Origin: Syntrophales bacterium
Lineage (GTDB): Bacteria; Desulfobacterota; Syntrophia; Syntrophales; UBA2251
Assembly: GCA_035358035.1 (NCBI GenBank)
Contig: DAOPOS010000001.1
Span: forward strand, 101,909-165,908
Reading direction: 5' to 3'
DNA length: 64,000 bases
Position numbers and translations under genes: made by a program. This document shows positions 202 through 14,896 of this stretch, piece after piece. Under the pieces are notes generated by a model that saw nothing but the letters and a program-made list of their open reading frames with translations, was not told the DNA's origin and did no database searches. How positions within the stretch are numbered: position 1 is the first letter of the stretch; each line of letters begins with the position of its first letter.

Positions 202-230
202 TTGACAAGGCCGGTCGATCCGGTTATGAG
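202..230 (+). promoter_or_regulatory. Candidate sigma-70 promoter for metH
   Basis: TTGACA at 202-207, 17-nt spacer, TATGAG at 225-230, about 100 nt upstream of the metH start. Confidence 0.35.
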
Positions 231-328
231 ACGCTGTCGGGAAAGGATTCCTCCATCCGTGGAATATAACCGTGTTTTCAATGAAATACCGATCGCGGCC
301 GAGGCAAGCCCTCCCGGGGGAGGTCGCC

Positions 329-2761
329 ATGTCTAGGCGCAGGACCTTTCGCGGCCTCTGGCGGGACGGCCTCGTCCTCCTCGACGGGGGCACGGGGACG
401 GAACTCCAGCGTGTCGGCATGCCCGCCGGGGTCTCTCCGGAGGCGTGGTGCCTCGCGCATCCTGACACCCTGAGCGGGATTCACCGCGCCTACCTCGACG
501 CCGGCGCGGCGATCCTCTACACCTGCACCTTCGGCGGCAGTCGTCCGAAGCTCGCCCCGTACGGGCACACCGACGTCCACGCGATCAACCGGGACCTCGC
601 CCGACTGGCCCGGCGGGTTGCGGGAAGGCGGGCGCTCGTCGCCGGGGACATTGGTGCGACGGGCCGTTTCGTGGAGCCCTTCGGCGACCTGCCTTTCGAC
701 GAGGCGGTGGCCATCTTCAGGGAACAGGCGGCGGGGCTTCTGGAGGGCGGCGTCGACCTCTTCGTCATCGAGACGATGCTCGACATCCAGGAGGCCCGGG
801 CGGCGCTCATCGCGGTCAAGGAGACCTGCCGGCTTCCGGTTATGGTCACCATGACGTATGAACAGGACGGCCGGACGCTGAACGGCACGGACCCGGTGAG
901 TGCCCTGATCACGCTGCAGGCCCTGGGCGCGGACGCCGTGGGGTGCAACTGTTCGACGGGGCCGGAAGCGATGGTCCCCCTGATCGCCGCCATGAAGCCC
1001 TACGCGACCGTCCCGCTCATGGCCAAACCGAACGCCGGGATACCGCGGCTCGTCGGCGACCGCACGCTTTTCGATATGGCGCCGGAGGCCTTCGGCGCGG
1101 CCGCGCGGGAACTCGCCGCCGCCGGAGCGAACCTCATCGGCGGCTGCTGCGGGACCACCGCGGCCCACATCGCCGCCCTGCGCACCGCCTTGGCGGGAGA
1201 GGCGCCGCAACCGCCCCGGCGCGGGGCGCTCGCCGCCGTCAGCTCCGCCCGCGCCCACCGGATCTTCGCCCCCGGCGATCCCCTCGTCGTCATCGGGGAA
1301 CGCCTGAACCCCACCGGCAAGAAGGCCCTCCAGCAGGAGCTGCGCGAGGGCAAGCTGGCCCTCGTCCGCCGGATGGCCCGGGAGCAGGAGGAGCGCGGCG
1401 CGGACCTCCTCGACGTGAACGTGGGCGTGCCCGGCATCGACGAGGTCAAAACCATCCGCGCGGTCGTCCGGCTCCTGGCCGCCGCAACGCCTCTGCCCCT
1501 CTGCCTCGATTCCGCCCGGGTTGACACGCTCGCCGCGGCGCTCCGGCTCTACCCCGGCCGCGCCCTGATCAACTCCATCTCGGGCGAGAAGGAGAAGATG
1601 GCCGAACTCCTGCCGCTCGCGGCCCGCTACGGGGCGATGTTCATCCTCCTGCCGCTCGCCGGCGGCGAGGTCCCCGCCACGGCGGAAAAACGCATGCAAA
1701 TCGTGCGCGACGTCTACCGGGCGGCACGGCGCCACGGGTTCACCAAGGAGGACATCGTCGTGGACAGCCTCGTCATGACCGTCGCCTCCAACCCACGGGC
1801 CGCCGCCGAGACCCTGAAGACCGTCGCCTGGAGCGCGGAGCGGTTCGGCGCCCGGACGGTGCTCGGCCTGTCGAATGTCTCCTTCGGGATGCCCGAACGG
1901 GACCGGCTGAACAGCGCCTTTCTGACCATGGCCCAGGCGGCCGGCCTGACGATGGCCATCGCGAACCCGTCGAGCGACGCCCTGGCCGATGCGCGGCGGT
2001 CGGGCGACGTCCTGCTGGGCCGGGACCGGGACGCGGCAGCCTACATCGCCCATGCGACCCAGAGCGCGCCGGGTGCGGAGCCTGTTCCTCCGGCGGCCGA
2101 CCCAGGGTCTCCGGAGGAACGGGTGCGGGAGGCCATTCTCGACGGCAACCGGGAGGAGATCGTCGCGCGGGTCGACGCGGTCCTGGCCGCCGGGACGCCC
2201 GCCGACCGCCTGGTCGACGACTGCCTGATCCCGGCGATCGTCGAGGTCGGCGACCGGTACGACCGGAAGACCTATTTCCTCCCGCAACTCATCGCCGCGG
2301 CCGAGGCCATGAAGGCGGCGCTCGCGCGCCTCGAACCCCTCCTCAGGCGGGAAGGAGCCGCCCGCGCCCACCGGGGGACGGTCCTGATGGCCACCGTCGC
2401 CGGCGACATTCACGACATCGGGAAGAACATCGTCGTCCTGATGCTGCGCAACCACGGCTTCGACGTCGTGGATCTCGGCAAGGACGTGACGGCGGAGGCG
2501 ATCGTCGCCGCCGCGCGGGAGCACCGGCCGGAGATGATCGGGCTGTCGGCCCTGATGACGACGACCATGGTCCGGATGAAGGACGTGATTGACTGGGCCG
2601 CGGACGCCGGGTTGACGGCGAAGTTTATGGTGGGGGGCGCCGTCGTAACGGCCGGGTTCGCCGCCTCGATCGGCGCCGCCTACGCCCGGGACGGCGTGGA
2701 GGCCGTCCGCGTGGCAACGGCCCTCGTCGAAGCGGTGCGGTCCGACCAGCCCGTTATGTGA
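329..2761 (+). CDS. metH: Cobalamin-dependent methionine synthase, short form without the AdoMet reactivation domain
   Basis: Homocysteine S-methyltransferase module (LLDGGTGTEL, NCSTGP, GGCCGTT). Pterin-binding module (VIGERLNPTGKK). B12-binding motif GDIHDIGKN near the C-terminus. The ATG at 329 has a GGGGGAGG RBS; the ORF track starts at 272. The protein ends after the B12 domain. Confidence 0.9.
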   Translation: MSRRRTFRGLWRDGLVLLDGGTGTELQRVGMPAGVSPEAWCLAHPDTLSGIHRAYLDAGAAILYTCTFGGSRPKLAPYGHTDVHAINRDLARLARRVAGRRALVAGDIGATGRFVEPFGDLPFDEAVAIFREQAAGLLEGGVDLFVIETMLDIQEARAALIAVKETCRLPVMVTMTYEQDGRTLNGTDPVSALITLQALGADAVGCNCSTGPEAMVPLIAAMKPYATVPLMAKPNAGIPRLVGDRTLFDMAPEAFGAAARELAAAGANLIGGCCGTTAAHIAALRTALAGEAPQPPRRGALAAVSSARAHRIFAPGDPLVVIGERLNPTGKKALQQELREGKLALVRRMAREQEERGADLLDVNVGVPGIDEVKTIRAVVRLLAAATPLPLCLDSARVDTLAAALRLYPGRALINSISGEKEKMAELLPLAARYGAMFILLPLAGGEVPATAEKRMQIVRDVYRAARRHGFTKEDIVVDSLVMTVASNPRAAAETLKTVAWSAERFGARTVLGLSNVSFGMPERDRLNSAFLTMAQAAGLTMAIANPSSDALADARRSGDVLLGRDRDAAAYIAHATQSAPGAEPVPPAADPGSPEERVREAILDGNREEIVARVDAVLAAGTPADRLVDDCLIPAIVEVGDRYDRKTYFLPQLIAAAEAMKAALARLEPLLRREGAARAHRGTVLMATVAGDIHDIGKNIVVLMLRNHGFDVVDLGKDVTAEAIVAAAREHRPEMIGLSALMTTTMVRMKDVIDWAADAGLTAKFMVGGAVVTAGFAASIGAAYARDGVEAVRVATALVEAVRSDQPVM

Positions 2762-2814
2762 CTCCCCAAAGGTCGCGCGGATCTCACCCTTTAAATTTTT
2801 CGGGACGCTCAGGC

Positions 2815-4032
2815 ATGGAGAAGAAAAAACAGCAGACCCGTTCACGCATCCTCGATGCCGCCGAGGCCCTCATCCTGGAGAGCAGCATCGAGGAGGTGAC
2901 GATTGCGAAGATCGCGGAGCGGGCCCAGGTAGCCGATTCCCTCGCCTACAAGTACTTCAAGGGCAAGAACGACATCATTTTTTCCGTGGTCGCCGAGCGA
3001 ACCCGCGAGGAAACCGCCCTTTTGCGCGAGCATCTCCAGGGCATCATCGACCCGAAATCCCGGTTGAGCAAGATGATCTGGCACATGCTGAAATACAACG
3101 ATTCGCATTCCAATCACGTGACGAATCTCCTCTTCCGGTGCCGGTCCAACAAGGACTTTTACCGATCCGAAGCGTATCGTCTGATGAAGGAATACGAAGC
3201 CATCCTCCTCAACATCCTCGAGGAGGGCGCCCGGGAGGGTGTGTTCCGGAGCGACATCGACATGAAGCTGATGAAGCACATCATCTTCGGAACGATCGAC
3301 ATCGAGGCCCTCAGCAGCATCGTCACCGGCGAAATCGAGAAGAGCTGCACGGATCTCGACGACATCATGGCCCTGCTCATCCCCATGCTGACAACGAAGG
3401 GCAAGCCCGCCGTGACGAACCGGCAGCAGGCGATCCTGCTCGCGGCGGAGAAGACCTTCGCCCGGCAGGGCTATGCCGACGCCAAGATCGCGGCCATCGC
3501 CGAGGAGGCCCAGGTGGCCGAAGGCACGATTTACGAATACTTTGCCGGCAAGGAAGACCTGCTGTTCGCCCTGTCCGGCAGGAACCTGAACGCCTATCTG
3601 GAAAGGGTTTCCAACATCTTCAACCCGCAGGCCGGCCCCTCCCCGCCGGAAAAATTATGGCGGCTGATGCGTTCCTTCGGTCTGAGCTTCCTGTCCATTC
3701 GGGACTTCATGACGGTCTACTTCATGTATACCCTGTTCAACCGCCGGTACTACCAGACCACCATCCAGCCGAAACAGAATGAATTCGCCCGGATGATGGG
3801 CCAGGTCATCGAGGAGGGCAAACAGGAAGGCACGTTTCGCGCGGACGTGAATCCGCGCGTCTTCTGGTATATGTTTCTGGGGTCCTACACCCACCTCGCC
3901 CTCCGCTGGATCATCATCGACCACAAGGAATTCGACAAGTACACGGAGGTCCGTCACCTGATGACCCTGATGATGACGGCCGCCCTCCGGGAACCCCCCA
4001 ACGTGGAATATCTGGTGCGAATCGAGTTCTGA
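2815..4032 (+). CDS. TetR/AcrR-family regulator with two tandem TetR units in one chain
   Basis: Two separate TetR N-terminal HTH signatures: RILDAAEALILESSIEEVTIAKIAERAQVADSLAYKYFKGKNDI and AILLAAEKTFARQGYADAKIAAIAEEAQVAEGTIYEYFAGKEDL. They lie about 200 aa apart, and each is followed by a helical ligand-domain-sized region. ATG at 2815 (MEKKKQ). Confidence 0.85.
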   Translation: MEKKKQQTRSRILDAAEALILESSIEEVTIAKIAERAQVADSLAYKYFKGKNDIIFSVVAERTREETALLREHLQGIIDPKSRLSKMIWHMLKYNDSHSNHVTNLLFRCRSNKDFYRSEAYRLMKEYEAILLNILEEGAREGVFRSDIDMKLMKHIIFGTIDIEALSSIVTGEIEKSCTDLDDIMALLIPMLTTKGKPAVTNRQQAILLAAEKTFARQGYADAKIAAIAEEAQVAEGTIYEYFAGKEDLLFALSGRNLNAYLERVSNIFNPQAGPSPPEKLWRLMRSFGLSFLSIRDFMTVYFMYTLFNRRYYQTTIQPKQNEFARMMGQVIEEGKQEGTFRADVNPRVFWYMFLGSYTHLALRWIIIDHKEFDKYTEVRHLMTLMMTAALREPPNVEYLVRIEF

Positions 4033-4354
4033 TTCCGCCCGCCTCCGGCCCCGACCGGGAGGACGTCCCACCGGCATCGCGACGCCCCGTCTCAGCGCGT
4101 GATATGACCGTCGGCCGTCGTTCCGGCTTCTGGCCCATTCCGTCGGACCCAAAGCACCGATCTCTTTCTTCAGAACCTGCTCCATGAGCTTCATTGTGTA
4201 TTATCACCTACGGTATTTTCATATACAATATCATTTCCATTTGACACCTAATCTATCTTATGCCAGGATTTTCTCAATCAGAAATCAAGAATGTGGGTCA
4301 TAGAAAGCCGCCGTTGGACGGCCTACACCATGTTGGGCACACCAAGGAGGAACC

Positions 4355-4778
4355 ATGAGCATGGGAAATAAAGGTTGGCCAAGAAATCAAAGTACTGGAC
4401 CAAATGGTGGACTATCTGCCGGACCGGGCGGTGGTATGTCTACAGGTCCAAATGGTGGCGCATCAACTGGGCCAGGTGGTGGAATGTCAACAGGGCCTGG
4501 CGGTGGTCTTTCAACTGGACCAGGGGGGGGGATTATCGACTGGACCAGAAGGAGGTTTATCAACTGGACCGGGTGGGGGCTTATCTACAGGTCCAGGTGG
4601 GGGACTGTCCACTGGACCGGGGGGGGGCCTTTCGACCGGTCCCGGCGGTGGTATGTCCACTGGGCTGACACCCTACTACAGTAACATCCCCCCATGGCCT
4701 GTTTTTGTAAAAGAACTTGAAAAACGGGGGATGCACCAGTACGCCGAACTTATCCGTCAATATCTCCCAAATGTTTAA
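4355..4778 (+). pseudogene. Glycine-rich STGPGGG(L/M) octapeptide-repeat protein, reading frame broken at a G9 tract
   Basis: Track ORFs 4355..4684 and 4404..4778 carry the same repeat in two frames. The frame switches at the 9-G run 4523-4531. Removing one G, or a +1 shift skipping A4532, gives one 141-aa product. RBS AAGGAGG lies before ATG 4355. Confidence 0.6.
4391..4655 (+). repeat. 11 tandem 24-nt coding repeats (octapeptide S-T-G-P-x-G-G-L/M)
   Basis: The span is 265 nt = 11 x 24 + 1. The extra nucleotide is the additional G in the 4523-4531 homopolymer. Confidence 0.9.
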
Positions 4779-4853
4779 TATGCAGAATAAATCGCATTTC
4801 ATAATGTCGCTTCGCACAGCTTCTTGGGATTATCGGTGGGCAGGAACGAAAAT

Positions 4854-5621
4854 ATGAATTTTACACATTACGACCTTGGTCAAAAAAGGGGAGGAGAAAT
4901 CATTGAGGTGACATTACAGGGAAGTGCGGCCAACGTCCGACTAATGGATTCTTCTAATTTCAATAGTTACCGAAACGGGCGGAGTCACAGATATCAAGGA
5001 GGGCTTGTTAAGAGATCGCCTTATCGACTTCAAGTGCCCAGGTCAGGGCATTGGCATGTCACCATTGACATGGCAGGGCTTAGAGGCACAGTCCGTTCTT
5101 CTATTCGTCAATTGCCGGGGGCATTGCCGACAGCACAAGAAGCTCCCCTATCATCAGTTCCTTCTCTCGTCCGAGGGAGAGAACCAGATTTTCACACCGA
5201 AGATGATCGTGAATTTGATGTTTTCATCTCGCATGCATCCGAAGACAAGGATGAAGTCGTTCGCCCACTGGCCCATTCCCTTAAACAAGGAGGTCTAAAA
5301 GTTTGGTATGATGAATTTGAACTCAAGATAGGAGATAGCCTTAGGAGAAAGATAGACAGCGGTCTTGCAAAAAGCCGTTTTGGTATTGTTGTTTTTTCTA
5401 AGGCTTTTCTTACAAAAGGATGGACCAACTATGAACTGGATGGTTTGGTAACGAAAACCGTAAGCGGGGAGCAGGTCTTGCTTCCCATTTGGCATAATGT
5501 AACAAAAAAAGAGATTATTGATTATAGTCCTTCTTTGGCTGACAAAGTTGCGAGAAACACTTCCACTCATACAGTGGAAGAAATCGCTGAAGAAATAGTT
5601 ATGCTTATCAATGGGGATTAA
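4854..5621 (+). CDS. DUF1883-TIR fusion protein
   Basis: The N-terminus MNFTHYDLGQ..GSAANVRLMDSSNFNSYRNGRSHRYQGG..SGHWHVTIDMAG matches the DUF1883 pattern. The C-terminus has TIR motifs FDVFISHASEDKD and KGWTNYELDG (the SxWCxxEL-type motif with the catalytic-position Glu). ATG at 4854; the track starts at TTG 4824. Confidence 0.85.
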   Translation: MNFTHYDLGQKRGGEIIEVTLQGSAANVRLMDSSNFNSYRNGRSHRYQGGLVKRSPYRLQVPRSGHWHVTIDMAGLRGTVRSSIRQLPGALPTAQEAPLSSVPSLVRGREPDFHTEDDREFDVFISHASEDKDEVVRPLAHSLKQGGLKVWYDEFELKIGDSLRRKIDSGLAKSRFGIVVFSKAFLTKGWTNYELDGLVTKTVSGEQVLLPIWHNVTKKEIIDYSPSLADKVARNTSTHTVEEIAEEIVMLINGD

Positions 5622-5759
5622 ACTAATCTCATAAAACCAAATTGCCCAACAAGGCGCTTTCAGTCGGACGCTCAAACAGCTGCGCGCCGCTGAAGCGCAA
5701 CGTTAGGGCAAGAGAAAAAGATACCGCAAGACAAAACCATACAGGAAAGGTCGGATCAG

Positions 5760-6143
5760 ATGGCACAACCACGGGCGTTTATCAGTTTCGAAATGGAAGA
5801 TAAATGGGCACGCGACTTCCTTGTTCAGCAGGCGAAGGACCGGAAGAACGATATTGCGTTCTACGATTATTCAGTGAAAGACCCCTTCGACTCCAAATGG
5901 AAGACGGAGTGCAGGAAGCGGATCGCGATGACGAAAGGCACCATCGTCTTGGTCGGCGAAACCACATGGAAATCTGAGGCCGTCCTGTGGGAGATCGCTG
6001 AGACAATTAGTCAAGACCACTATATCTTTGGAATCCAGATCAACAGGGACAAGACCCACACAATCCCCAAGGGCTTGCCCAGCCGGAACGTGATACGCTG
6101 GGATTTCGAGCAGATCGTAAAGTGGTTGAAAACATGGGTATGA
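5760..6143 (+). CDS. ThsB-type TIR-like protein (DUF1863 family)
   Basis: AFISFEMEDKWARDFL...GTIVLVGETTWKSEAVLWEIAETI...IFGIQI...VIRWDFEQIVKWL follows the DUF1863/MTH538 TIR-like pattern, including the W-E-I Glu. Confidence 0.85.
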   Translation: MAQPRAFISFEMEDKWARDFLVQQAKDRKNDIAFYDYSVKDPFDSKWKTECRKRIAMTKGTIVLVGETTWKSEAVLWEIAETISQDHYIFGIQINRDKTHTIPKGLPSRNVIRWDFEQIVKWLKTWV

Positions 6144-6149
6144 TCAGTC

Positions 6150-6983
6150 ATGTATCTTGACGACATTGCTTCACGAATCCGGTCACACATCCCAGATGAC
6201 CAGATGCCAGATGAGAACGCAGAGGAGCTGTTGCGCCTTTATGCAGTTCTTCTTCGCGCGAAGGGCACGGGCATTACGGAAAGCGATATCCATGACGCTT
6301 GGTCGGCGTGGATGTCCACACGTGACGAGTCTCATAAGGCTCTTGTCAATTATGAAGATCTCCCACCCGAAGTTCGCGACGCGGATAGTGTCTTCGCGAG
6401 TGCTGTCCGGAAAGCGGCTCAGGAGTTGGGACAAAGCAACGTGCTCCTCCCTGAGTTTGAAAGAATACTTTTCCCGTCGGGTCCCCCTGCCGATGTTGAA
6501 TCCACCCAACAGGCGCTGGATCTCTACAAAATCATGGTATCGAGTTCCGAGAGCTTGGTGAGCCGTCGTCAGGCGGTCAACACGTTCTTTTTGACAATGA
6601 ACGGTGCGCTTCTGACCGCCTTCGGAATTATTGTCAAGAGTTCTGGCGCAGATCAGCTAAGTGCTCTCGGTATCTTTGTCTTGGCTGTCGCCGGAGCGAT
6701 TCTCTGTGGGGCGTGGCGAAGTCTTATCACGTCATTCGGGCAATTGAATCGGGGCAAGTTCCAGGTGATCAACACGATCGAACGATACTTGAAGACAGCA
6801 ATATACAAAGCCGAGTGGGAAGCTCTCGGTCGCGGCGAGAACCCTAAGATATATAGATCTTTCACATCACGAGAGATATGGGTTCCGAATGCGCTTCTTG
6901 CGTTGCACGTTTTGGCAGCCATAGCCGCGCTTCTTGTGGCAATGGGATATGTCACCTGTGGAGCGGGAGGAGCTACGCCCTAA
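6150..6983 (+). CDS. Membrane protein with an unassigned helical N-domain and 3 predicted TM helices; candidate effector
   Basis: Starts 6 nt after the ThsB-like stop. Residues 1-~135 are soluble. Hydrophobic segments lie at about 143-162 (VNTFFLTMNGALLTAFGIIV), 170-192 and 243-267. I could not assign a family. Confidence 0.7.
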   Translation: MYLDDIASRIRSHIPDDQMPDENAEELLRLYAVLLRAKGTGITESDIHDAWSAWMSTRDESHKALVNYEDLPPEVRDADSVFASAVRKAAQELGQSNVLLPEFERILFPSGPPADVESTQQALDLYKIMVSSSESLVSRRQAVNTFFLTMNGALLTAFGIIVKSSGADQLSALGIFVLAVAGAILCGAWRSLITSFGQLNRGKFQVINTIERYLKTAIYKAEWEALGRGENPKIYRSFTSREIWVPNALLALHVLAAIAALLVAMGYVTCGAGGATP

Positions 6984-7062
6984 CAACATCTTGGACACGT
7001 ACGCAAGTAAGCCGCGCTGCTTCGATCTGCGGCTCCCTTGCGCCGGTCAAGGTGGACGTTAG

Positions 7063-8328
7063 ATGCCAAGACGGAATGAAAAGGTCGGCGCGACGAACCC
7101 GAGAAAGAGCAGGCAGAAGGTGAATTACGAGATCAAGAAAGACAGAACGTGGCTTGTCCGCGAAGAAGAACGGGTCTACGAGGCTAGGAGCCAAGGCGTT
7201 CTTGGCAGGAAACGCAAGCGGTTCCGATTAATCGATGTGTTCTCCGGCGCGGGAGGGATGACACTCGGATTCTCGAAAATGTTCGGGCACGCATTCGATT
7301 CTGTTTGGGCCAACGATTTTGACGATGCCTGTGTGCATACGTATCGCAGGAACTTCGGAGACCACTGTGTATCAGGTGACATCGTGGATATTCTCGACGA
7401 TCCGAAAACGGAGATTCCATCCGCCGACGTCGTCATTGGCGGGCCACCGTGCCAAGGGTTCAGCCTTCTGAATAAGAACCGCGAGGGCGATCCGCGAAAG
7501 CAACTGTGGCGTCCTTTTCTTGATATTGTCGAGCGTTCCGGAGCTCAAATATTCGTCATGGAGAACGTGCCCCAGCTACTGGGTTCTTTCGAGCATGGTG
7601 AAATCATGGGCACGGCTGAAGCCTTGGGCTTCAGCTGCTGGGGAGAAGTTCTTTGCGCAGCCGACTACGGTGTTCCGCAGACTCGCCGTCGGGCGATCAT
7701 CGTCGGGTGCAAGTTTTTCGACCCGTCTCAGGTTTTTCCGCCGCGGAAAACACACTTCGACCCGCGCAAGGGGGGCGCACAAATCTCCTTTTTGCAGGCC
7801 GACAGCAAAGGGTATCTGCCTGGCGCCGTGAAGTGGCGCACGGTGTGCGATGCGATTGCGGATCTTCCGCCGCCGAAGGGAACGGAGATTCGTGAAGAGG
7901 CCCCACCGCTTGATCTCCACTTCGGACGTTCTCCTACGCCGATGAGCATGGCCCGATACAAGGTGATTCCTGAAGAGGGCATGAACCGTTTCGACCTACA
8001 GAAGCGTGCGCCCGATCTGACTCCCGGTTGCTGGATTCGGAAGAAAAGCGGCGGCACGGATCTTTTCGGTCGGCTGTGGTGGGACCGTCCTGCGTTCACG
8101 ATTCGGACGGAGTTCTTCAAGCCGGAGAAGGGCCGGTATCTGCACCCGAAACAGCACAGACCGATAACGCACCGAGAAGCAGCGCGTTTGCAGTCCTTCC
8201 CGGATGAGTTCGTATTCACGGGATCGAAAATCGAGATTGCGCGGCAGATTGGGAACGCCGTGCCGCCGCGCCTAGCGGCACGCGTGGCCGACGTGGTGTA
8301 TCTGCTCCTGACGATGAACAACCGGTGA
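7063..8328 (+). CDS. DNA (cytosine-5)-methyltransferase
   Basis: Motif I DVFSGAGGMTLGF, motif IV GGPPCQGFS, motif VI FVMENV, motif VIII QTRRR, motif X GNAVPP. Confidence 0.9.
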   Translation: MPRRNEKVGATNPRKSRQKVNYEIKKDRTWLVREEERVYEARSQGVLGRKRKRFRLIDVFSGAGGMTLGFSKMFGHAFDSVWANDFDDACVHTYRRNFGDHCVSGDIVDILDDPKTEIPSADVVIGGPPCQGFSLLNKNREGDPRKQLWRPFLDIVERSGAQIFVMENVPQLLGSFEHGEIMGTAEALGFSCWGEVLCAADYGVPQTRRRAIIVGCKFFDPSQVFPPRKTHFDPRKGGAQISFLQADSKGYLPGAVKWRTVCDAIADLPPPKGTEIREEAPPLDLHFGRSPTPMSMARYKVIPEEGMNRFDLQKRAPDLTPGCWIRKKSGGTDLFGRLWWDRPAFTIRTEFFKPEKGRYLHPKQHRPITHREAARLQSFPDEFVFTGSKIEIARQIGNAVPPRLAARVADVVYLLLTMNNR

Positions 8329-8329
8329 C

Positions 8330-8743
8330 ATGACCGACATATTCTCCAAAGAGAAGCGAAGCTGGATCATGAGTCGCGTCAAGGGGCGCGACACCAAGCC
8401 GGAGATGTTGGTTCGTTCGTTTGTTCATCGGATGGGATTTCGCTTTCGGGTTCATAGGCGTGACCTGCCGGGGAACCCGGATATCGTACTGCCGCGATAC
8501 GGAAAAGTGATCTTCGTGCACGGATGTTTCTGGCACGGGCACAACCGGTGTCCGCGATCGAAGCGGCCGGCAACGAACAAGAGCTTCTGGAACAAGAAGC
8601 TCGATGCGAACATCGAGCGAGATAAGCGCTTCCGAAGGGAGCTACGTCGGATGGGTTGGAAGTTGTTGGTAGTATGGCAATGCGAGACCCACAACCCGGA
8701 GAAACTGTTGGGGAAGCTGGAAAGGTTTCTGTATGACGAATGA
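8330..8743 (+). CDS. vsr: Very-short-patch repair endonuclease
   Basis: SWIMSRVKGRDTKPEMLVRSFVHRMGFRFRVHRRDLPGNPDIVLPRYGKVIFVHGCFWHGH is a typical Vsr sequence. It starts 2 nt after the methyltransferase stop. Confidence 0.9.
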   Translation: MTDIFSKEKRSWIMSRVKGRDTKPEMLVRSFVHRMGFRFRVHRRDLPGNPDIVLPRYGKVIFVHGCFWHGHNRCPRSKRPATNKSFWNKKLDANIERDKRFRRELRRMGWKLLVVWQCETHNPEKLLGKLERFLYDE

Positions 8744-9674
8744 ACGAAAGAAGGTGACGGCTGGCGACCCGGAAGTCGTAAGGCAGAAGGTTGCAAAACT
8801 TATCGCGAACTTCGAAGCGGAGCTCCAGTCGGGCGAGCTTCGCCCGAAGGTTCTTGCCCTGATTCCGATCTTCCACGGGCTGCGCGACATTGGCAAGGCA
8901 CTGATACCGACCGAGTACGCTTCGGCCGCGAGAGACCGGATCCTGTACTACTTCCGGCAGTATCCTGGGACGATTATCAACAGCGACGAGCTGCTTGTCG
9001 TCTCGGGGATTCAGGAGTACGCGCGGCGCTTGCGCGAACTGCGTGTGCAGTTCGGTTGGGCAATCGTGAGCGGCGTCACGATCAAGGAAATGCGCGAGGA
9101 CGAAGCCGATGAAGTACCGGCCGAACTAAAGACCATGAGGCCGAATGAATATGTTCTCTTGAGTGCGGCCGAAGATCGCGACGCGGCGCATCGCTGGCAC
9201 GTCGCGAACACGATCCGCAAGGAGCGCGGATCTATACGCGGCAAGATTCTGAAGTTTCTTCGGGCAAACGTTGGGCGCGGTGTGACGAACGAGGAGTTGC
9301 GCTATGTAGCCGGGGACAAAACGGAGTGGGCACGACGCGTGCGCGAGCTGCGGACGGAGCATGGTTGGCCCATAGCGACAAAGACCACCGGGCGCCCGGA
9401 TTTGGGCGTCGGGGTCTACGTGTTGCAGGCAGACCGGCAAAGCCCGGAACATGACCGCAGCATTCCGGACGATGTTCGTCGGGAAGTGCTGCGGCGCGAC
9501 GGGTACAAGTGTCGAATATGCGGTTGGTCACACGAAGAATGGAATCCGTCCGACCCACGACATCTGGAGTTGCATCATATAGAGCATCATGCGAAGGGCG
9601 GTGCGAACGTGGGGGAGAACCTGAAGACCTTATGCACCGTCTGCCATGACAAGGTACACCGCAGGGAGAAGTGA
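8733..9674 (+). CDS. HNH endonuclease with two tandem wHTH-like N-terminal modules; probable restriction component
   Basis: C-terminal HNH motif: CRICGW...HLELHHIEHHAKGG...NLKTLCTVCHDKVH. Internal duplication: RILYYFRQYPG..DELLVVSGIQEYARRLRELRVQFGWAI versus KILKFLRANVG..EELRYVAGDKTEWARRVRELRTEHGWPI. Overlaps vsr by 11 nt. Confidence 0.8.
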   Translation: MTNERKKVTAGDPEVVRQKVAKLIANFEAELQSGELRPKVLALIPIFHGLRDIGKALIPTEYASAARDRILYYFRQYPGTIINSDELLVVSGIQEYARRLRELRVQFGWAIVSGVTIKEMREDEADEVPAELKTMRPNEYVLLSAAEDRDAAHRWHVANTIRKERGSIRGKILKFLRANVGRGVTNEELRYVAGDKTEWARRVRELRTEHGWPIATKTTGRPDLGVGVYVLQADRQSPEHDRSIPDDVRREVLRRDGYKCRICGWSHEEWNPSDPRHLELHHIEHHAKGGANVGENLKTLCTVCHDKVHRREK

Positions 9675-9774
9675 CAGTAGCGCCGAATGTTTCGATCGAA
9701 TGCCTTTCCCGATGAATTGTGCGTTCTGTGATTGCGTATTCCGATGATTCCGCCCCTCGATTCCGGAGGAAGCC

Positions 9775-9868
9775 GCCACCCGAAACCGATCCAAAGCGCC
9801 AGGGTGTTGCGATGGATGCCCGGTGTCTCGGCGATCTTCCGAATGCTGTACCCCTGATACCGCGCTGA
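9775..9868 (-). pseudogene. Fragment of a transposase/resolvase-type HTH (mobile-element remnant)
   Basis: The minus-strand frame reads ARYQGYSIRKIAETPGIHRNTLALWI, a classic HTH of IS transposase N-termini. A stop lies 4 codons upstream, there is no start, and nothing recognisable follows. Confidence 0.3.
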
Positions 9869-10321
9869 GCTAAAAACCTACCCTACCCTTATCTCTCAGC
9901 AACTCCCCCCACCACCACCCCCACCCTTCGACGGGCTCAGGGTGACAGCGATGACTTTTTACGAGGTCATCCTTTTTGGCTCAATTTATCAGCCTCGTTA
10001 CAATAATTCGGGAATTCATCGCGGATGAACCCCATTCACCCCTTGAACCGGTCTCTGCCCCGAGTGGGCCCGAATCGGCCTTTCGGCGGATCCTCCCCGG
10101 GCCTGGCACTCTAAAACTCTGTAATAACAGCATAATCATAAATTAAATGATTCTCAGCGCCCGGCGGATTCTTCACAGGCCTTTTTTCTCTTGACATTAT
10201 GTTTTCCTTAAATTAGGTGAACGGTACTCAATCAAGGCCGGAACTGAACCGGAGATTCTTCTGCAAACACGTTCATTGCACGGGCGATGAATGGAGCATA
10301 CAAACGAAAGGAGAGTTGGAC

Positions 10322-11881
10322 ATGGTTTTAGGAGATTTTTTCAAGAAGCACAGCCAGGAAATCCCCAATAACGAGGCGCTCGTCTTCAAGGAGCGACGGA
10401 TCACGTTCAAGCAGTACGACGAGGCGACGGACCGGGTGGCGATGGGTCTCCTGAAGCTGGGTGTAAAGCGCGGCGACCGGATCGCGATCTACGGGCCGCT
10501 CTGGCCGGAAATCGTTTTCGCCTATTTCGGCGCGGCCAAGATCGGGGCCATCGGCGTTCCCATGAGCGCGCGGACCACGGCGCCGGAGCTCAAATTCTTC
10601 GTCAACGACTCGGAGAGTTCCGTTCTTTTCATGCCCAGCACCTTCATGGGCGCGGACTTCATGGCTAATCTGGACGCGGTCCGGAGCGAGCTACCGACGC
10701 TGAAGCACGTCGTCTGCCTCGACCTGGAAAAGGAGGGCGTCCTCCTCTGGGAGAAGTTCCTGGCCGAACCCGACCCAGCGGTGTTGAACAAGGCCAAGGA
10801 TGCGGTCCAGGAGGACGATTCCGCCCTCTTCATCTACACGTCGGGCACGACGGGCGTTCCCAAGGCCGCCCAGTTGACGCACAAGAATCTGATCTCCCTG
10901 ACGAACGCCCAGATCGAGGCCACCGGATACCATCGCGGGCACATCATCGTCCTGAACCTCCCCTTCAGCCATGTCGGCGGCGCCGTGATGGGGATCATCT
11001 GCAACGTGAACGTGGGCAACAAGGTCGTCATGATGGACGCCTTCAATCCCGAGGAAACCCTCCGCCTGGTTTCCGAAGAGAAGGCAACGACGCTTGGACA
11101 GGTGCCCGCCATGTACGCCATGGAGCTTTCCCATCCCAACCTGAGCAAGTACGACATCAGCACCCTCAAGCTCCCCATCGTCTCCTCCCAGCCGTGCCCC
11201 TCGGAGCTGATCACGGCCTTCAAGAAGATCGTCGGCGTGATCCCGCTCAACGCCTACGGCCTGACGGAAACCACCGCCGCCATCACCTACACGCATCCCA
11301 GCCACGGAGAGGAGAAACTGACCTACTCCGTGGGCAAGCCCGTCCCCTCGATCCAGATGGTTCTCAAGGATGACGACGGCAAGATCGTCCCCACGGGCGA
11401 GTCGGGCGAGATCTGTGTCAAGGGGCCCGTCGTCATGAAGGGCTACTGGAAGCGCCCCGAAGAGGACGCCAAGGTCTTCGACGCCGACGGCTTCCTCCAC
11501 ACGGGCGACATGGGCCGTTTCGAGGAGGACGGCTCGCTCGTGATCGTCGGCCGGAAGAAGGAGATGTACATCCGCGGCGGCGAGAACGTCTATCCCCCGC
11601 AGATCGAGGACGCGATCTGCAAGCACCCGGACGTGATGCTCGCGGCGGTCATCGGCCGCCCCCACGAGAAGTGGGGCGAGGTCGGGCGCGCCTACATCAT
11701 GCCCAAGCCGGGGAAAAACCCCGCGCCGGAGGAGATCAAGGAATTCCTCAAGGACAAGCTGTCCAACTTCAAGATCCCGGAGGACTTCATCATCCGGCCC
11801 ATGCTGCCCCTGACGCCCCTGGGAAAGGTCAAGAAGCTCGACCTCTACACGGAAATGAAACAGGAACTCGGCAAAAAGTAG
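10322..11881 (+). CDS. Acyl-CoA synthetase / AMP-dependent ligase
   Basis: AMP-binding motifs YTSGTTGVPKAA, GYGLTE-like NAYGLTETT and TGDMGRFEEDGSLVIVGRKKE. ATG at 10322 has RBS AAAGGAGAG; the track starts at 10217. Confidence 0.85.
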   Translation: MVLGDFFKKHSQEIPNNEALVFKERRITFKQYDEATDRVAMGLLKLGVKRGDRIAIYGPLWPEIVFAYFGAAKIGAIGVPMSARTTAPELKFFVNDSESSVLFMPSTFMGADFMANLDAVRSELPTLKHVVCLDLEKEGVLLWEKFLAEPDPAVLNKAKDAVQEDDSALFIYTSGTTGVPKAAQLTHKNLISLTNAQIEATGYHRGHIIVLNLPFSHVGGAVMGIICNVNVGNKVVMMDAFNPEETLRLVSEEKATTLGQVPAMYAMELSHPNLSKYDISTLKLPIVSSQPCPSELITAFKKIVGVIPLNAYGLTETTAAITYTHPSHGEEKLTYSVGKPVPSIQMVLKDDDGKIVPTGESGEICVKGPVVMKGYWKRPEEDAKVFDADGFLHTGDMGRFEEDGSLVIVGRKKEMYIRGGENVYPPQIEDAICKHPDVMLAAVIGRPHEKWGEVGRAYIMPKPGKNPAPEEIKEFLKDKLSNFKIPEDFIIRPMLPLTPLGKVKKLDLYTEMKQELGKK

Positions 11882-11894
11882 GACGGAGGACGGA

Positions 11895-13247
11895 ATGGAA
11901 AAATACGATGTCATCATTATCGGCGCCGGCATTGCCGGACTTGGCGTCGGCGGCATACTTCAGAACAAGGGTTTCAAGACGGCGGTCTTCGAAAAGAGCA
12001 AGGTTGTCGGCGGGCGTTCGCGGACCTTCGAGCTCCCCGGCGGCTGGCGGGTCGACATGGGCACCCACTGCGTCGATCAGGGCGTGCATTCGTCCTGCGC
12101 CAAGCTGCTCACGGAGCTGGGAACGGACATCCCCTGGTCGCACAACCTCGAGGGGTTCATGTTCTACGGCGAGGACGGGAAATGGAAGCCGATGATGGAG
12201 TCTTTCAACCTGGGCGAGGCGGAGAGGAAGGAACTCAATGAGTTGCAGACCTGGATCAAGAACGCCTCCGACGAGCTGATCGACCATTACGACAACGTCT
12301 CCCTGACGAAACTGCTCGAGGAGCGGGTCAAATCGCCCAAGATCGGCGAATTCTGCAAGACCGTCGGCATGGTGCAGACGACCCTGACGGAATCGGACAT
12401 CATTTCCGCGGGCGAGTTCATCCACATCTACCGCGACCAGATGCGCGTCTCGAAGAGCCCCGACCTTCCGTTCGACGCGGTGCGGATGCCCCTGGGCGGC
12501 GTTCAGACCATGATGAACGCCATGGCGGAGGCCTACAAGAAACGGGGCGGAGCGCTTCATCTCGGCACGCCGGTTCGCAAAGTCCTGGTCGGAAAGGGCG
12601 GGCCGGCGGAGCTCGTGACGGACGGCGGCAGCTATTCCTCGCCGATCGTGGTCATCGCCGCGCCGATCTGGAACGTGCTGAAGTTCCTCGACATGGCGGC
12701 CATGGACCAACTGGCGCCGGCATGGGCGAAGCGCATGCGCGAATGCGAGTTCGAGACCAGCGCCTCCATGGGATACACCATCGGGACCAAGGTGCCCCTG
12801 TTCGACGACAAATGCTACCTGTCGGCCTGGCGGGTTCCCGGACTGGGCATGCCCCTGCAGATCCTGGGGCATACGAACTTCGACACAACGATCGCGCCCC
12901 CCGGCCACATGATCGCCTTCATGGGCGCCTGCGGCACGCCGGCGCAGGTGGGCGACGCGGCCTTCCGCAAGAAGACCCTGGATCAGTTCTGGGTCGTCCT
13001 CAATCAGATGTTCCCCAACATGGAGAGCAACCTGGTGTGGAAGCAGGACGGATTCACGATCGGCATCGACGGACTCTCCCGCTCGCCGGGCATGACCGGT
13101 CGCTACCGGCTGCCCGTGGAGCTCCCGGAGGTGCCCGGTCTGTACTTCTCCGGCGACTGCTACCTGGGCCGGGGCGTCGGCATGAACACGGCGGCCAGCT
13201 CCGCCATGATCTGCGTGGACGCGATCCTGTCCAAACACGGAAAATAG
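11895..13247 (+). CDS. FAD-dependent oxidoreductase (phytoene-desaturase/amine-oxidase-like)
   Basis: N-terminal Rossmann motif YDVIIIGAGIAGLGVGGIL...FEKSKVVGGRS. C-terminal FSGDC...G-G motif. Confidence 0.8.
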   Translation: MEKYDVIIIGAGIAGLGVGGILQNKGFKTAVFEKSKVVGGRSRTFELPGGWRVDMGTHCVDQGVHSSCAKLLTELGTDIPWSHNLEGFMFYGEDGKWKPMMESFNLGEAERKELNELQTWIKNASDELIDHYDNVSLTKLLEERVKSPKIGEFCKTVGMVQTTLTESDIISAGEFIHIYRDQMRVSKSPDLPFDAVRMPLGGVQTMMNAMAEAYKKRGGALHLGTPVRKVLVGKGGPAELVTDGGSYSSPIVVIAAPIWNVLKFLDMAAMDQLAPAWAKRMRECEFETSASMGYTIGTKVPLFDDKCYLSAWRVPGLGMPLQILGHTNFDTTIAPPGHMIAFMGACGTPAQVGDAAFRKKTLDQFWVVLNQMFPNMESNLVWKQDGFTIGIDGLSRSPGMTGRYRLPVELPEVPGLYFSGDCYLGRGVGMNTAASSAMICVDAILSKHGK

Positions 13248-14894: not shown

Positions 14895-14896
14895 TC

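Follow-up and report, generated by a model that had tools for sequence, protein, structure and literature searches.

A candidate Thoeris-type module pairing a ThsB-like TIR protein with a predicted membrane effector that carries a divergent RyR/R12-like domain

Introduction

Several Thoeris systems are known to rely on membrane effectors that are activated by a TIR-made signal, namely type II with Macro-TM, type V with DUF2270 and type VII with SLATT (10.64898/2025.12.03.692087). The effectors Macro-TM (ThsC), DUF2270 (ThsF, three transmembrane segments and a ring-like model) and SLATT (ThsH) share a common logic, in which a ThsB TIR protein is encoded beside a small multi-pass membrane protein whose oligomerisation and activation by an ADPR-derived signal are predicted. 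Yirmiya et al. (2025, bioRxiv 10.64898/2025.12.03.692087) also list a putative Thoeris effector class, '3TM', whose rows in the part of Table S1 covered here carry no mark of experimental verification and which we take to be predicted only.

A second line of work, in two 2026 preprints, concerns phage proteins that bind or cleave the cADPR signals of Thoeris; their fold and their ligand-contacting residues were found, as a surprise, to be those of the R12 repeat of animal ryanodine receptors (PMC13232231; 10.64898/2026.06.04.730250). In the sponge RyR Tad, mutation of the residues H129/W132/H154/D171 weakens 3'cADPR binding by ~100-fold (10.64898/2026.06.04.730250), and the corresponding H75, W78, H100 and D117 of the glycosidase RyDEP are contacts in its complex with 3'cADPR (PMC13232231). 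The His/Asp pair with which sponges bind their ligand is also the catalytic dyad of RyDEP (PMC13232231). Both preprints leave open where the domain resides on the host side (PMC13232231; 10.64898/2026.06.04.730250), and in the literature that we searched no RyR-type sensor has been described in a Thoeris effector, the only relevant papers being those on RyDEP and RyR Tad.

Here, we describe a gene at 6150–6983 of a 64,000-nucleotide stretch of Syntrophales bacterium DNA (the window), for which a preliminary description had proposed a soluble sensor domain fused to a three-pass membrane module with an abortive-infection role. We lean, by a modest margin over even, towards the reading that 5760–6143 and 6150–6983 form a two-gene Thoeris-type anti-phage module, with a membrane effector gated or tuned by a RyR-like signal-binding domain. 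The pair would follow the logic of types II, V and VII. Pairing of ThsB with the membrane module found here, 8xMP, is already known as the '3TM' candidate, and the attachment of the domain DUF7701 appears to be the new element.

A ThsB-like gene and a predicted effector gene in a low-GC island

The two genes are as follows.

5760..6143, plus strand: thsB-like gene, a 127-aa minimal TIR-like protein; predicted signal-producing sensor enzyme
6150..6983, plus strand: effector gene, ATG start, 277 aa; DUF7701, linker and 8xMP in that order (ORF list, Pfam)

The upstream protein matches the Pfam family ThsB_TIR (E = 7.4e-15) as well as the PADLOC ThsB models and PDC-M50B, and an RBS-like AGGAAAGG lies upstream of the ATG at 5760. 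Its putative catalytic Glu, E78, which was assigned by motif position within S-x-A-V-L-W-E-I, is kept in 46 of 47 ThsB-like sequences. The W-E-I/M motif also occurs in the Thoeris ThsBs of TIR cluster 2635319349, and a near-identical relative is a listed Thoeris ThsB of this cluster in Table S1 (Yirmiya et al. 2025, 10.64898/2025.12.03.692087). The start codon of the effector gene lies 6 nt beyond the thsB-like stop codon, an operon-like spacing, and a promoter and terminator scan of 4200–7200 placed no site between the two genes, with counts over that region no better than those for shuffled sequence.

The effector ORF is exactly the one first described (plus strand, ATG, 277 aa), and the strings that had drawn attention to it recur in the translation, with IHDAWSAWM at residues 47–55, HKALVNYEDLPPEVRDADSVF at 62–82 and SSESLVSRRQAVNTFFLTMNGALL at 131–154. 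In the public annotation (P0001, 259 aa) the protein starts 18 codons later than 6150; because residues 2–18 are conserved, we judge the start at 6150 to be the better one and the public start to be placed 18 codons too late. Both halves of the protein score far above their Pfam thresholds and a first search returned 501 homologues at E ≤ 1e-3, so that by sequence criteria the observation is beyond chance.

Existing defence and family models do not describe this protein: an NCBIfam scan gave no match at E ≤ 1, neither PADLOC 2.0 nor NCBIfam holds a model for it, and Pfam detected no Macro, DUF2270 or SLATT domain at E ≤ 1. The only PADLOC traces, PDC-S15 (E = 0.011, residues 6–52) and PycTM (E = 0.17), were regarded as noise. 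We also set aside a Pfam WDR62-MABP1 coiled-coil match (E = 0.053) as a coiled-coil artefact, and a PDB profile match to the tRNA m7G methyltransferase Trm8 (2vdv/2vdu, E ~0.07), which had no other support and covered no conserved motif. Literature searches for 8xMP, DUF7701 or octameric membrane protein, and for RipA family, RipA-like or octamer together with TIR, found nothing relevant.

The window has a GC content of 0.49–0.58 at 4–10 kb, compared with 0.63–0.72 in the flanks, and the same island holds a TIR candidate gene (PDC-S66) and the R-M module Dcm-Vsr-HNH. As tblastn found none of the window's DUF1883-TIR, Dcm, Vsr and HNH genes in 74 homologous loci, we consider these neighbours to be separate cargo of the island that lies outside the system. 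A tRNA scan of 1–16000 found none, and no obvious tRNA-linked integration site was seen there.

The N-terminal half is a predicted divergent RyR/R12-like domain

The N-terminal half comprises the following features.

6153..6422, plus strand: DUF7701 domain, residues 2–91 (Pfam PF24792, E = 1.5e-32); divergent RyR/R12-like four-helix domain, predicted to bind nucleotides
6291..6302, plus strand: H-x2-W codons, H48-D49-A50-W51; predicted ribose and adenine contacts
6333..6386, plus strand: H62 to D79 codons, HKALVNYEDLPPEVRDAD; predicted phosphate-contact His, with the Asp at +17
6423..6515, plus strand: linker, residues 92–122; conserved LFPxGPP motif, low pLDDT at 97–99

The DUF7701 match reaches 112.1 bits against a cut-off of 27 and covers model positions 2–91 of 91. 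Residues 1 to about 135 had been described as soluble and helical, and this holds for the N-terminal half, in which hydropathy peaks at 0.56 over residues 1–120 (Kyte-Doolittle, 19-residue window) and AlphaFold2 places helices at 2–11, 24–41, 44–56, 73–92 and 100–107; the sensor-like domain, however, stops near residue 92, and residues 116–142 already lie in the long helix with which the membrane module begins. Between the two, linker residues L107, F108, P109, G111, P112 and P113 are invariant within the fused clade.

The resemblance to RyR-type domains, initially noticed by eye, was borne out by profile and structure comparisons. Profile-profile alignment with hhalign matched DUF7701 to the cADPR sponge RyR Tad at E = 5e-5, with a probability of only 67%, and a search of the PDB with the DUF7701 family profile returned the RyR repeat 6uhi (E = 4.4e-4) together with four bacterial 'putative ryanodine receptor' entries (E 0.3–0.6). 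AlphaFold2 gave a confident model of the isolated domain (pLDDT 87.7), from which Foldseek retrieved seven phage proteins annotated as RyR-domain proteins (probability 0.97–1.00). Among PDB entries, the Foldseek matches included the RyR repeat crystal structures 4etv, 3rqr and 6x34, with a TM-score of ~0.4 at best and no match at E < 0.001. The Pfam RyR model PF02026 failed to match either the N-domain or standalone DUF7701 proteins even at E ≤ 10, whereas RyR Tad gp68 matched at 3.6e-10 in the same scan; compared with RyR Tad, DUF7701 is shorter in two loops, by 6 and 5 residues. Given the PF02026 miss, the lack of a PDB fold match at E < 0.001, the TM-score of ~0.4 and the hhalign probability of 67%, we class DUF7701, from its sequence and model, as a divergent RyR/R12-like domain whose relationship to the RyR repeats is remote.

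Like RyDEP (PMC13232231) and RyR Tad gp68 (10.64898/2026.06.04.730250), DUF7701 is a small all-helical domain with an H-x2-W ... H ... (+17) D tetrad, and it shares with them a similar fold and a putative functional tie to cADPR isomers made by TIR proteins. H48 and W51 are kept in 72 of 72 sequences, and H62 and D79 in 71 of 72. By hhalign, these four residues pair with H129, W132, H154 and D171 of RyR Tad, and they match the H75/W78/H100/D117 pattern of RyDEP. The His-to-Asp spacing of +17 is common to DUF7701, RyDEP (H100/D117) and the bacterial RyR domain 6uag. In a joint alignment of host, phage and RyR Tad sequences, the only invariant columns are those of the tetrad plus W54 and L71. 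The ligand-contact residues of animal R12 (Repeat12), a nucleotide-binding domain of the RyR-repeat type that likewise sits on an oligomeric membrane channel, are conserved in DUF7701. The animal receptor differs in that its repeats are arranged in tandem and belong to a tetrameric Ca2+ channel of 5,000 residues in eukaryotic endomembranes, as opposed to a single repeat on a bacterial protein with three transmembrane segments; the window effector has no homology to the RyR pore, and its similarity to R12 is remote.

Since the same His/Asp pair binds ligand in the sponges and catalyses in RyDEP, sensor, sponge and hydrolase roles of DUF7701 are indistinguishable at the sequence level. There is an alternative that we rate as rather improbable, by which the TIR protein and 8xMP would still provide defence, the 8xMP ring would sense the signal itself, and the attached DUF7701 would buffer the messenger as a sponge or destroy it as a glycosidase like RyDEP, setting the activation threshold or ending the response in a manner comparable to the fused ring nuclease of Csx1-Crn2 in type III CRISPR. 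Two observations on the pocket favour it: the RyDEP catalytic dyad corresponds to the invariant H48 and D79, and the RyR-domain proteins so far characterised as acting on the signals of Thoeris comprise sponges and one hydrolase but no sensor.

The C-terminal half is a predicted three-pass 8xMP module

The membrane module comprises the following features.

6516..6932, plus strand: 8xMP module, residues 123–261 (Pfam PF24838, E = 1.9e-35); predicted three-pass membrane domain
6576..6638, plus strand: TM1, residues 143–163; mean hydropathy 1.38, weak; inside helix 116–164 of the model
6657..6725, plus strand: TM2, residues 170–192; mean hydropathy 1.88; inside helix 169–214
6882..6950, plus strand: TM3, residues 245–267; mean hydropathy 2.0–2.2; inside helix 238–264

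The three-TM module of the preliminary description is upheld by the 8xMP match (122.1 bits against a cut-off of 30, model positions 1–135 of 136 covered) and by the three hydrophobic segments, of which TM1 is weak. Hydropathy and Lys+Arg counts together predict three passes with the N-terminus inside: the four regions flanking the segments contain 3, 0, 9 and 0 Lys+Arg residues, a positive-inside pattern that fits this topology. The best full-length Foldseek matches in the PDB, the alpha-pore-forming toxins AhlB and SmhB, were rejected as long-helix artefacts (RMSD 36–38 Å, probability ≤ 0.13).

The 8xMP family is large, with 1,974 clusters at 50% identity (E ≤ 1e-3), and its family-wide invariant residues are R139, R140, W189, L199, E211, E222 and W223. 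All of these except L199 would lie on the cytoplasmic face of 8xMP and could form a binding site of its own, in line with DUF7701 acting as a damper and not as the sensor. An octamer is presumed from names only, namely that of the Pfam family and the NCBI label of homologues P0006 and P0098, 'RipA family octameric membrane protein'; PDB sequence and profile searches found no solved 8xMP structure that sequence can detect.

Homologous loci link 8xMP to ThsB-like proteins, with and without DUF7701

Each of 19 fused homologues has a ThsB-like gene as its direct upstream neighbour; these homologues represent Gemmatimonadota, Acidobacteriota, Proteobacteria, Planctomycetota, Spirochaetota, Bacteroidota, Chloroflexota and others. 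Homologues are 65–84% identical across unrelated phyla, and the patchy distribution looks like the product of horizontal transfer. Their neighbourhoods are variable, with extra ThsB genes, BREX, DISARM, Old, Hma, integrases and PIN, and often include defence genes; housekeeping genes flank some loci. Direct fusions point the same way: among 55 long 8xMP representatives, at least 14 are fused to TIR and 9 to DUF7701, and this set contains no other known domain. In a distant 8xMP subfamily, for which metagenome search patterns were derived from an 18-sequence subfamily alignment, a ThsB gene is present in 50 of 80 metagenomic loci; among the 59 whose sequence extends far enough upstream, 36 have it as the next gene. 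DUF7701 occurs in 0 of the 80. The 63 standalone 8xMP proteins were too diverse in alignment to yield search patterns.

Among known systems, the '3TM' class is a close match. Its membrane module belongs to the same Pfam family (PF24838) as that of the window effector, ThsB precedes the effector gene in both systems, and each has a TIR of the ThsB_TIR type. The '3TM' TIR IMG 2595430680 is identical to our homologue P0285 (100% identity), which in locus L076 precedes a 154-aa protein of PF24838, the two forming an operon without DUF7701. As far as the class was checked, its members lack an N-terminal domain, to which the window effector adds DUF7701, and the 8xMP subfamilies differ in a helix motif (YKIMVxSSESL versus YKLYVEMADRI). 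The terms PF24838, PF24792, 8xMP, DUF7701 and RipA do not occur in the tables of that preprint as covered here, with Table S1 short of 8,937 rows (Yirmiya et al., 10.64898/2025.12.03.692087), and matches to 'RyR' are letters inside sequences; operons with DUF7701 may be listed there under a different label. Together, the upstream ThsB genes, the TIR–8xMP fusions and the '3TM' match support the proposed effector role in a TIR context.

These data bear on whether the protein is instead a housekeeping envelope protein with a coincidental TIR neighbour. Francisella tularensis RipA, the model for such a function in membrane homeostasis or the lipid A pathway, is a small cytoplasmic-membrane protein and intracellular-growth factor linked to LpxA and lipid A metabolism, not to defence; a literature search on RipA octamers returned only papers on Francisella genetics, and no TIR or DUF7701 partner of RipA has been reported. 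The NCBI name of the homologues and the housekeeping genes at some loci would fit this explanation, which we nevertheless regard as highly implausible: the link to TIR genes recurs systematically in different phyla and in two divergent 8xMP subfamilies, 8xMP is fused to TIRs, the transfer-like spread, low-GC island and variable, often defence-rich neighbourhoods are not those expected of it, and phages encode homologues of the N-domain. Moreover, Francisella RipA itself is only a presumed member of PF24838.

A split arrangement occurs in 47 loci from actinobacteria, where one gene encodes 8xMP and the next, adjoining gene encodes DUF7701, opposite to the order within the fused protein; one such standalone DUF7701 protein, P0121, has 96 aa. 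The same stop/start spacing recurs in 36 of 46 split loci and is consistent with a 4-nt overlap, and thus with translational coupling of the two genes. About half of these loci have no adjacent ThsB-like gene, and some Streptomyces loci contain the 8xMP–DUF7701 pair alone. Elsewhere the upstream position is taken by other partners, including DUF4328, a DUF4062-TPR protein and unknown proteins of 465–700 aa; DUF4062 is itself TIR-like, as we presume from Pfam clans. Other arrangements include three ORFs for ThsB, DUF7701 and 8xMP (locus L022) and a ThsB_TIR–8xMP fusion followed by DUF7701 (locus L053).

Loci of this kind could be taken to indicate that 8xMP and DUF7701 are a toxin and its gatekeeper, responding to a trigger other than a TIR nucleotide, such as a phage protein or a metabolite, with the TIR protein acting as an independent NADase or separate sensor. 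The loci without ThsB, the alternative partners and the 4-nt overlaps, which recall toxin-antitoxin gene organisation, are in its favour. We find it distinctly unlikely, as ThsB is adjacent in every locus (19 of 19) of the fused clade, which includes that of the window, TIR is fused directly to 8xMP in other proteins, and the residues conserved in DUF7701 coincide precisely with those by which RyR-domain proteins contact cADPR isomers; the presumed TIR-like nature of the replacement partner DUF4062 also counts against it.

The operons that combine ThsB and 8xMP without DUF7701 (L076 and the 0 of 80 distant loci) argue that DUF7701 is dispensable for the 8xMP family as a whole, in which case the membrane module must be able to respond to TIR alone. 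The sensor-plus-membrane-module layout originally proposed fits the architecture, an RyR-like domain on a three-TM 8xMP module, with one qualification: because 8xMP pairs with TIRs without DUF7701 elsewhere, there may be a sensor besides the N-domain, and activation may depend on that other sensor. The same operons, and the separate third gene in actinobacteria, count in favour of DUF7701 damping the response. On the other hand, the covalent N-terminal fusion with its conserved linker and the coupling in 36 of 46 split loci suggest a stoichiometric complex and not a free enzyme, although Csx1-Crn2 illustrates that covalent effector fusions can still be regulatory. Both halves are present in 69 of 74 loci of the DUF7701-bearing subfamily, and such a nearly obligatory domain resembles a core subunit more than an accessory damper.

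Proposed mechanism and implications

In the Thoeris-type module that we favour, the ThsB-like TIR protein (127 aa) would sense infection and convert NAD+ into an ADP-ribose-derived second messenger. The effector would be anchored in the inner membrane by 8xMP, with three passes, a cytoplasmic N-terminus and assembly into a ring-like homo-oligomer, and its cytoplasmic DUF7701 domain, a divergent R12-type repeat, would bind the messenger in the pocket of H48, W51, H62 and D79. Ligand binding would then alter the state of the assembled 8xMP such that the membrane is breached or depolarised, and phage replication would stop through abortive infection or growth arrest. We infer each of these components, namely signal production by the TIR protein, binding by DUF7701, activation rather than restraint, membrane killing by 8xMP and the octamer, as we do pore formation, toxicity and ligand binding by the effector.

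A more specific proposal, which we put forward tentatively and consider somewhat doubtful, is a TIR-signal-gated channel in which a ThsB-made cADPR isomer binds DUF7701 and four back-to-back dimers open the 8xMP octamer; RyDEP and RyR Tad pair in this way through helices 1 and 4. The system would then represent, in prokaryotic immunity, an equivalent of the animal logic of cADPR, RyR-repeat domain and channel, which may even have evolved from it, and the sponges and hydrolases of RyR type in phages (RyDEP, RyR Tad and phage DUF7701) would have been captured from this host domain.

If the favoured module is correct, the operon would supply the missing host element, a RyR-like domain wired to a TIR-associated oligomeric membrane effector by fusion or coupling, and would define a new class of sensor domain for Thoeris-type immunity. 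It would also give a function to the hitherto uncharacterised Pfam families DUF7701 and 8xMP, which together hold thousands of sequence clusters, and provide a small, tractable system in bacteria to learn if repeats of the RyR type can turn cADPR binding into channel gating. Should DUF7701 act as a damper instead, the protein would, within the literature searched, be the first effector of Thoeris type known to carry its own signal-quenching module.

Unlike RyDEP and RyR Tad, DUF7701 is host-encoded in a putative defence operon and fused or coupled to a membrane effector, although phage copies also exist: DUF7701 proteins that retain the tetrad are encoded by 44 Streptomyces phages, and phage DUF7701 proteins include JustBecause gp193 and Limpid gp201. 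With the split system common in Streptomyces, these copies may be the signature of an arms race, and the preferred reading would explain them as candidate anti-defence proteins. Phage-encoded DUF7701 is compatible with the domain acting either as a sensor or as a damper.

Domain architecture and topology of the effector

The open reading frame at 6150–6983 (+) starts with ATG and encodes 277 residues, including all of the strings quoted in the preliminary description. Pfam assigned residues 2–91 to DUF7701 (PF24792; E = 1.5e-32, 112 bits, cut-off 27) and residues 123–261 to the octameric membrane protein family 8xMP (PF24838; E = 1.9e-35, 122 bits, cut-off 30). The same scan returned no RyR, Macro, SLATT or DUF2270 match, and neither NCBIfam nor PADLOC 2.0 provided any model for the protein. 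A first homology search identified 501 homologues at E ≤ 1e-3, of which the best 120 all share the DUF7701-8xMP architecture at 65–100% identity; two of these 120 are named "RipA family octameric membrane protein" by NCBI.

The proposed division into a soluble helical N-domain and a three-pass C-terminal half was borne out. The N-terminal ~115 residues lack a hydrophobic segment (maximum 19-residue Kyte-Doolittle mean of 0.56), and the N-domain modelled alone with AlphaFold2 comprises five helices (mean pLDDT 87.7, pTM 0.76). Hydrophobic segments are strong at residues 170–192 and 245–267 and weaker at 143–163, all within long helices of the AlphaFold2 model. The four regions flanking these segments contain 3, 0, 9 and 0 Lys+Arg residues, a pattern that fits a predicted topology of three passes, with the N-terminus inside and a cytoplasmic loop of 50 residues. 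The public gene model, P0001 (259 aa, Syntrophales MAG), begins at Met19, 18 codons late. Because residues 2–18 are conserved among homologues, 6150 is to be preferred as the start; the upstream codons (6150–6203) also fall within the DUF7701 model, and the deposited protein is probably truncated at its N-terminus.

An exhaustive search with residues 117–277 yielded 1,974 clusters (50% identity) at E ≤ 1e-3, many of them standalone 8xMP proteins of 160–200 aa. Among the 55 representatives with an N-terminal extension, 9 carry DUF7701 and at least 14 a ThsB-type TIR, and we found no other known domain in this set. Seven residues are invariant across diverse 8xMP members (R139, R140, W189, L199, E211, E222 and W223); the predicted topology places all of them at the cytoplasmic face or close to it, where the module may have an interaction or ligand-binding site of its own.

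DUF7701 is a remote relative of RyR repeats

The likeness to RyR domains, seen by eye in the preliminary description, proved a good lead, with profile searches, hhalign and Foldseek all pointing to remote RyR relatives. The Pfam RyR model (PF02026) itself gave no match to DUF7701 even at E ≤ 10, and by Pfam's criterion the domain lies outside that family. A single-sequence search of the PDB returned RyR repeats alone, at non-significant E-values and aligned on the LVNYEDLPPEVRDAD motif; a 68-sequence profile matched the RyR1-repeat chimera 6uhi at E = 4.4e-4 and also picked up 6uag, 6ug5, 4n05 and 3nrt, all bacterial entries labelled "putative ryanodine receptor". Foldseek comparison of the N-domain model with the PDB gave nothing significant (best E = 0.67); RyR repeat structures (4etv, 6mm7, 6j6o, 6x34, 3rqr) accounted for 6 of the first 12 matches, and no other match had a probability above 0.25. 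Against a viral structure library, phage DUF7701 proteins took the first three places (E 2e-5 to 1e-4), and ranks 4–12 included seven "Ryanodine receptor Ryr domain-containing" proteins from unrelated phages (probability 0.97–1.00, TM 0.40–0.56).

The putative ligand pocket can be compared with those of two phage anti-Thoeris proteins acting on 3'cADPR. RyDEP contacts the terminal ribose through H75 and D117, its catalytic dyad, stacks W78 on the adenine and holds the phosphates with H100 (PMC13232231). For RyR Tad, which is gp68 of phage CB1, each of the double mutants H129A/W132A, H154A/K147A and K170A/D171A binds 3'cADPR ~100-fold more weakly (10.64898/2026.06.04.730250). Both proteins share the pattern H-x2-W, a loop His and an Asp 17 residues on, and the effector has a similar one, H48-x2-W51, H62 and D79, with D79 likewise at +17. 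In fused and split homologues H48 and W51 are kept in 72/72 sequences and H62 and D79 in 71/72, despite overall identities down to 40–55%. The gp68 protein is matched by Pfam RyR at 3.6e-10, and when hhalign was used to compare it with the DUF7701 alignment (E = 5e-5, probability 67%), H48/W51/H62/D79 fell opposite H129/W132/H154/D171; relative to gp68, DUF7701 has two loop deletions. We conclude from these profiles and models that DUF7701 is a divergent RyR/R12 repeat relative with a predicted ligand pocket retained, and consider it likely to be a nucleotide-binding domain of the RyR type.

A ThsB partner in a low-GC island

The effector region, at about 4–10 kb of the window, has a GC content of 0.49–0.58, compared with 0.63–0.72 in the flanks. 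The genes around the effector, in this stretch and at its left border, are as follows.

Genes in and beside the low-GC island
2758–4032, +, protein with two tandem TetR units, 424 aa, at the left border of the island (two TetR_N, each with its own C-terminal domain)
4355–4778, +, glycine-rich repeat gene (~12 copies of STGP(G/N)GG(L/M))
4824–5621, +, DUF1883 + TIR protein, 265 aa (PADLOC PDC-S66, E = 3.8e-73; phrog_9211, E = 4.6e-116)
5760–6143, +, ThsB-type TIR-like protein, 127 aa (Pfam ThsB_TIR, E = 7.4e-15; several PADLOC ThsB models)
7063–8328, +, C-5 cytosine methyltransferase (Dcm)
8330–8743, +, Vsr mismatch endonuclease
8733–9674, +, HNH endonuclease

The last three genes overlap or abut and constitute a restriction-modification module of type II that includes Vsr repair (7063–9674), completing a small defence island. 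The DUF1883-TIR gene, matched by a PADLOC single-gene candidate (PDC-S66) and a phage family (phrog_9211), is probably a TIR defence gene in its own right, or possibly a second sensor TIR. The glycine-rich gene, whose repeats are 24/48-nt tandem DNA repeats, has a strong AGGAGG ribosome-binding site ahead of ATG 4355 and no Pfam, PADLOC, NCBIfam or PHROG match. Its frame is lost within nine consecutive G at about 4524–4532, and another frame continues through a well-formed C-terminus to the stop at 4778; the cause is either a sequencing error in the homopolymer or phase variation by strand slippage.

The ThsB-like gene ends 6 nt before the effector ATG, and its putative catalytic Glu, E78, is kept in 46/47 sequences. 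We quantified linkage in 74 loci, on contigs from one genome per species, using tblastn and iterated HMMs. The fused architecture occurs in 19 of these loci, each with a ThsB-like gene directly upstream. Its hosts include Gemmatimonadota, Acidobacteriota, Beta-/Gammaproteobacteria, Planctomycetota, Spirochaetota, Bacteroidota, Chloroflexota, Rubrobacteraceae and others, and identities of 53–75% across such diverse phyla indicate horizontal spread of the module.

The island's other genes (DUF1883-TIR, Dcm, Vsr and HNH) were absent from all 74 loci by tblastn, and the surroundings of the fused clade differ locus by locus. The commonest neighbour is a further ThsB_TIR gene (5/130 ORFs), with BREX, DISARM, Old, Hma, PDC candidates, integrases or PIN genes at individual loci. 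On a mainly non-defence context, named beforehand as an outcome that would count against an effector, these neighbourhoods are variable and look like those of a small mobile defence cassette, though some loci lie amid housekeeping genes; a RipA-like housekeeping role is a lesser rival. In Marinobacter-type contigs (L077), a 494-aa ORC/CDC6-like, nSTAND3-like ATPase gene (3631–5115) precedes the ThsB/effector pair, and a SymE-family toxin gene (6948–7148) follows it on the opposite strand.

Fusion, fission and permutation of the modules

In 47 of the 74 loci the two domains are encoded by adjacent separate genes in reverse order, 8xMP followed by a DUF7701 protein of ~96 aa, with nearly all hosts in Actinomycetota (Streptomyces, Kitasatospora, Nonomuraea, Mycobacterium and others). 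Stop/start spacing is identical in 36/46 split loci and corresponds to a 4-nt overlap where the ORF caller placed the start (e.g. L036, L045, L050), a sign of probable translational coupling. One locus (L022) has three consecutive ORFs, ThsB - DUF7701 - 8xMP. In Streptomyces sp. WAC08241 (L053), a single 281-aa ORF (5590–6435) joins ThsB_TIR (residues 6–85) to 8xMP (140–279) and is followed by a DUF7701 gene (6512–6724). Such repeated joining, splitting and permutation provides strong comparative evidence that TIR, 8xMP and DUF7701 function together.

Of the 47 split loci, ~18–24 have a ThsB-like gene ahead of the pair. The remainder have DUF4328, DUF4062-TPR or unannotated proteins (465–700 aa) upstream, which are possible alternative sensors; further actinobacterial loci of this kind, with varied upstream genes, are L071, L047, L042, L036 and L037.

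Genes upstream of split pairs
L054, 2680–5841, DUF4062-MalT-TPR protein, 1,053 aa
L028, 5222–5926, DUF4328 protein, ~232 aa

A toxin/gatekeeper pair acting independently of TIR is a lesser rival, to be set against the ThsB-like gene found at every fused locus.

Relation to catalogued Thoeris systems

Yirmiya et al. list 29 putative Thoeris effector types, with types V–XI validated (10.64898/2025.12.03.692087), and "3TM" is a class label in the accessible part of their Table S1. One "3TM" TIR listed there, IMG 2595430680, is identical to protein P0285, and on the P0285 contig (L076) the gene after the TIR, with a 4-nt overlap, encodes a 154-aa PF24838 8xMP protein; no DUF7701 occurs at this locus. 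Hence, as far as the accessible table extends, ThsB + 8xMP is a putative Thoeris configuration already catalogued as "3TM". As its rows there bear no experimental-verification mark, we take the class to be a prediction only. Beside the L076 operon lie an HTH + Peptidase_M78 (IrrE-like) gene and then a DUF4411 gene (1466–3132), which may be a separate two-gene module.

The "3TM"-type 8xMP proteins form a distant subfamily with the helix motif YKLYVEMADRI; the window's subfamily has YKIMVxSSESL instead. Searching metagenomic contigs for the distant subfamily gave 80 loci. Of these, 50 have a ThsB-type gene, and among the 59 loci with at least 450 nt of upstream sequence it lies directly upstream in 36. 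Since DUF7701 occurs in 0/80 of these loci, it is an add-on confined to the window's subfamily, where DUF7701 and 8xMP are both present in 69/74 loci. In the accessible Table S1, a near-identical relative of the window's ThsB (a10pfw1_1003229012, TIR cluster 2635319349) is annotated with a type IV (caspase) effector, and the cluster is also paired with type V effectors (10.64898/2025.12.03.692087); on these entries, TIR type does not predict the signal.

Proposed mechanism

Together, these data make the protein very probably a TIR-linked defence effector. In our model, ThsB would sense infection and produce an ADPR-derived messenger, the RyR-like pocket of DUF7701, facing the cytoplasm on an 8xMP oligomer, would bind it, and the oligomer would then compromise the membrane. 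The architecture and linkage in this scheme are observed directly. The rest of the scheme, from production and binding of the signal to the direction of regulation, the oligomeric state and the mode of killing, is drawn by analogy from Thoeris types II, V and VII, RyDEP and RyR Tad, and we lean only slightly towards the full chain, in which a RyR-like sensor gates a pore. Because standalone 8xMP pairs with TIRs, the main rival is that 8xMP itself senses the signal, with DUF7701 built in as a sponge or glycosidase to set a threshold or end signalling. The binding His and Asp are those of the RyDEP catalytic dyad, so sequence does not separate this reading from a DUF7701 sensor.

Thoeris-type systems with membrane effectors, ThsB + 8xMP ("3TM") and phage RyR-type domains binding cADPR isomers are already known; in the part of the literature covered, we found no host immune effector described as bearing, or being coupled to, a RyR-like domain. 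The effector thereby touches a question that the two 2026 preprints on RyDEP and RyR Tad both raise, namely the reason for the resemblance between a phage anti-Thoeris fold and the ryanodine receptor.

DUF7701 in phages

Among 50,697 phage genomes searched by tblastn with the N-domain, 44 records were hit, all from large Streptomyces phages. The encoded proteins are genuine DUF7701 (Pfam E 1e-29 to 1e-35) and keep the His-Trp-His-Asp tetrad.

Phage DUF7701 genes
Streptomyces phage JustBecause (L162), 2465–2758, gp193, standalone DUF7701, 97 aa
Streptomyces phage Limpid (L161), 2081–2755, gp201, two DUF7736 repeats + DUF7701

The split host system is common in Streptomyces, the same genus as the hosts of these phages, and the phage copies parallel the RyR-domain sponges that phages deploy against Thoeris. 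This circumstantial evidence fits a diffusible ligand or decoy function, and we regard the phage proteins as candidate anti-defence sponges or decoys against the 8xMP/DUF7701 system. A NADAR-domain gene lies 1.5 kb upstream of Limpid gp201.
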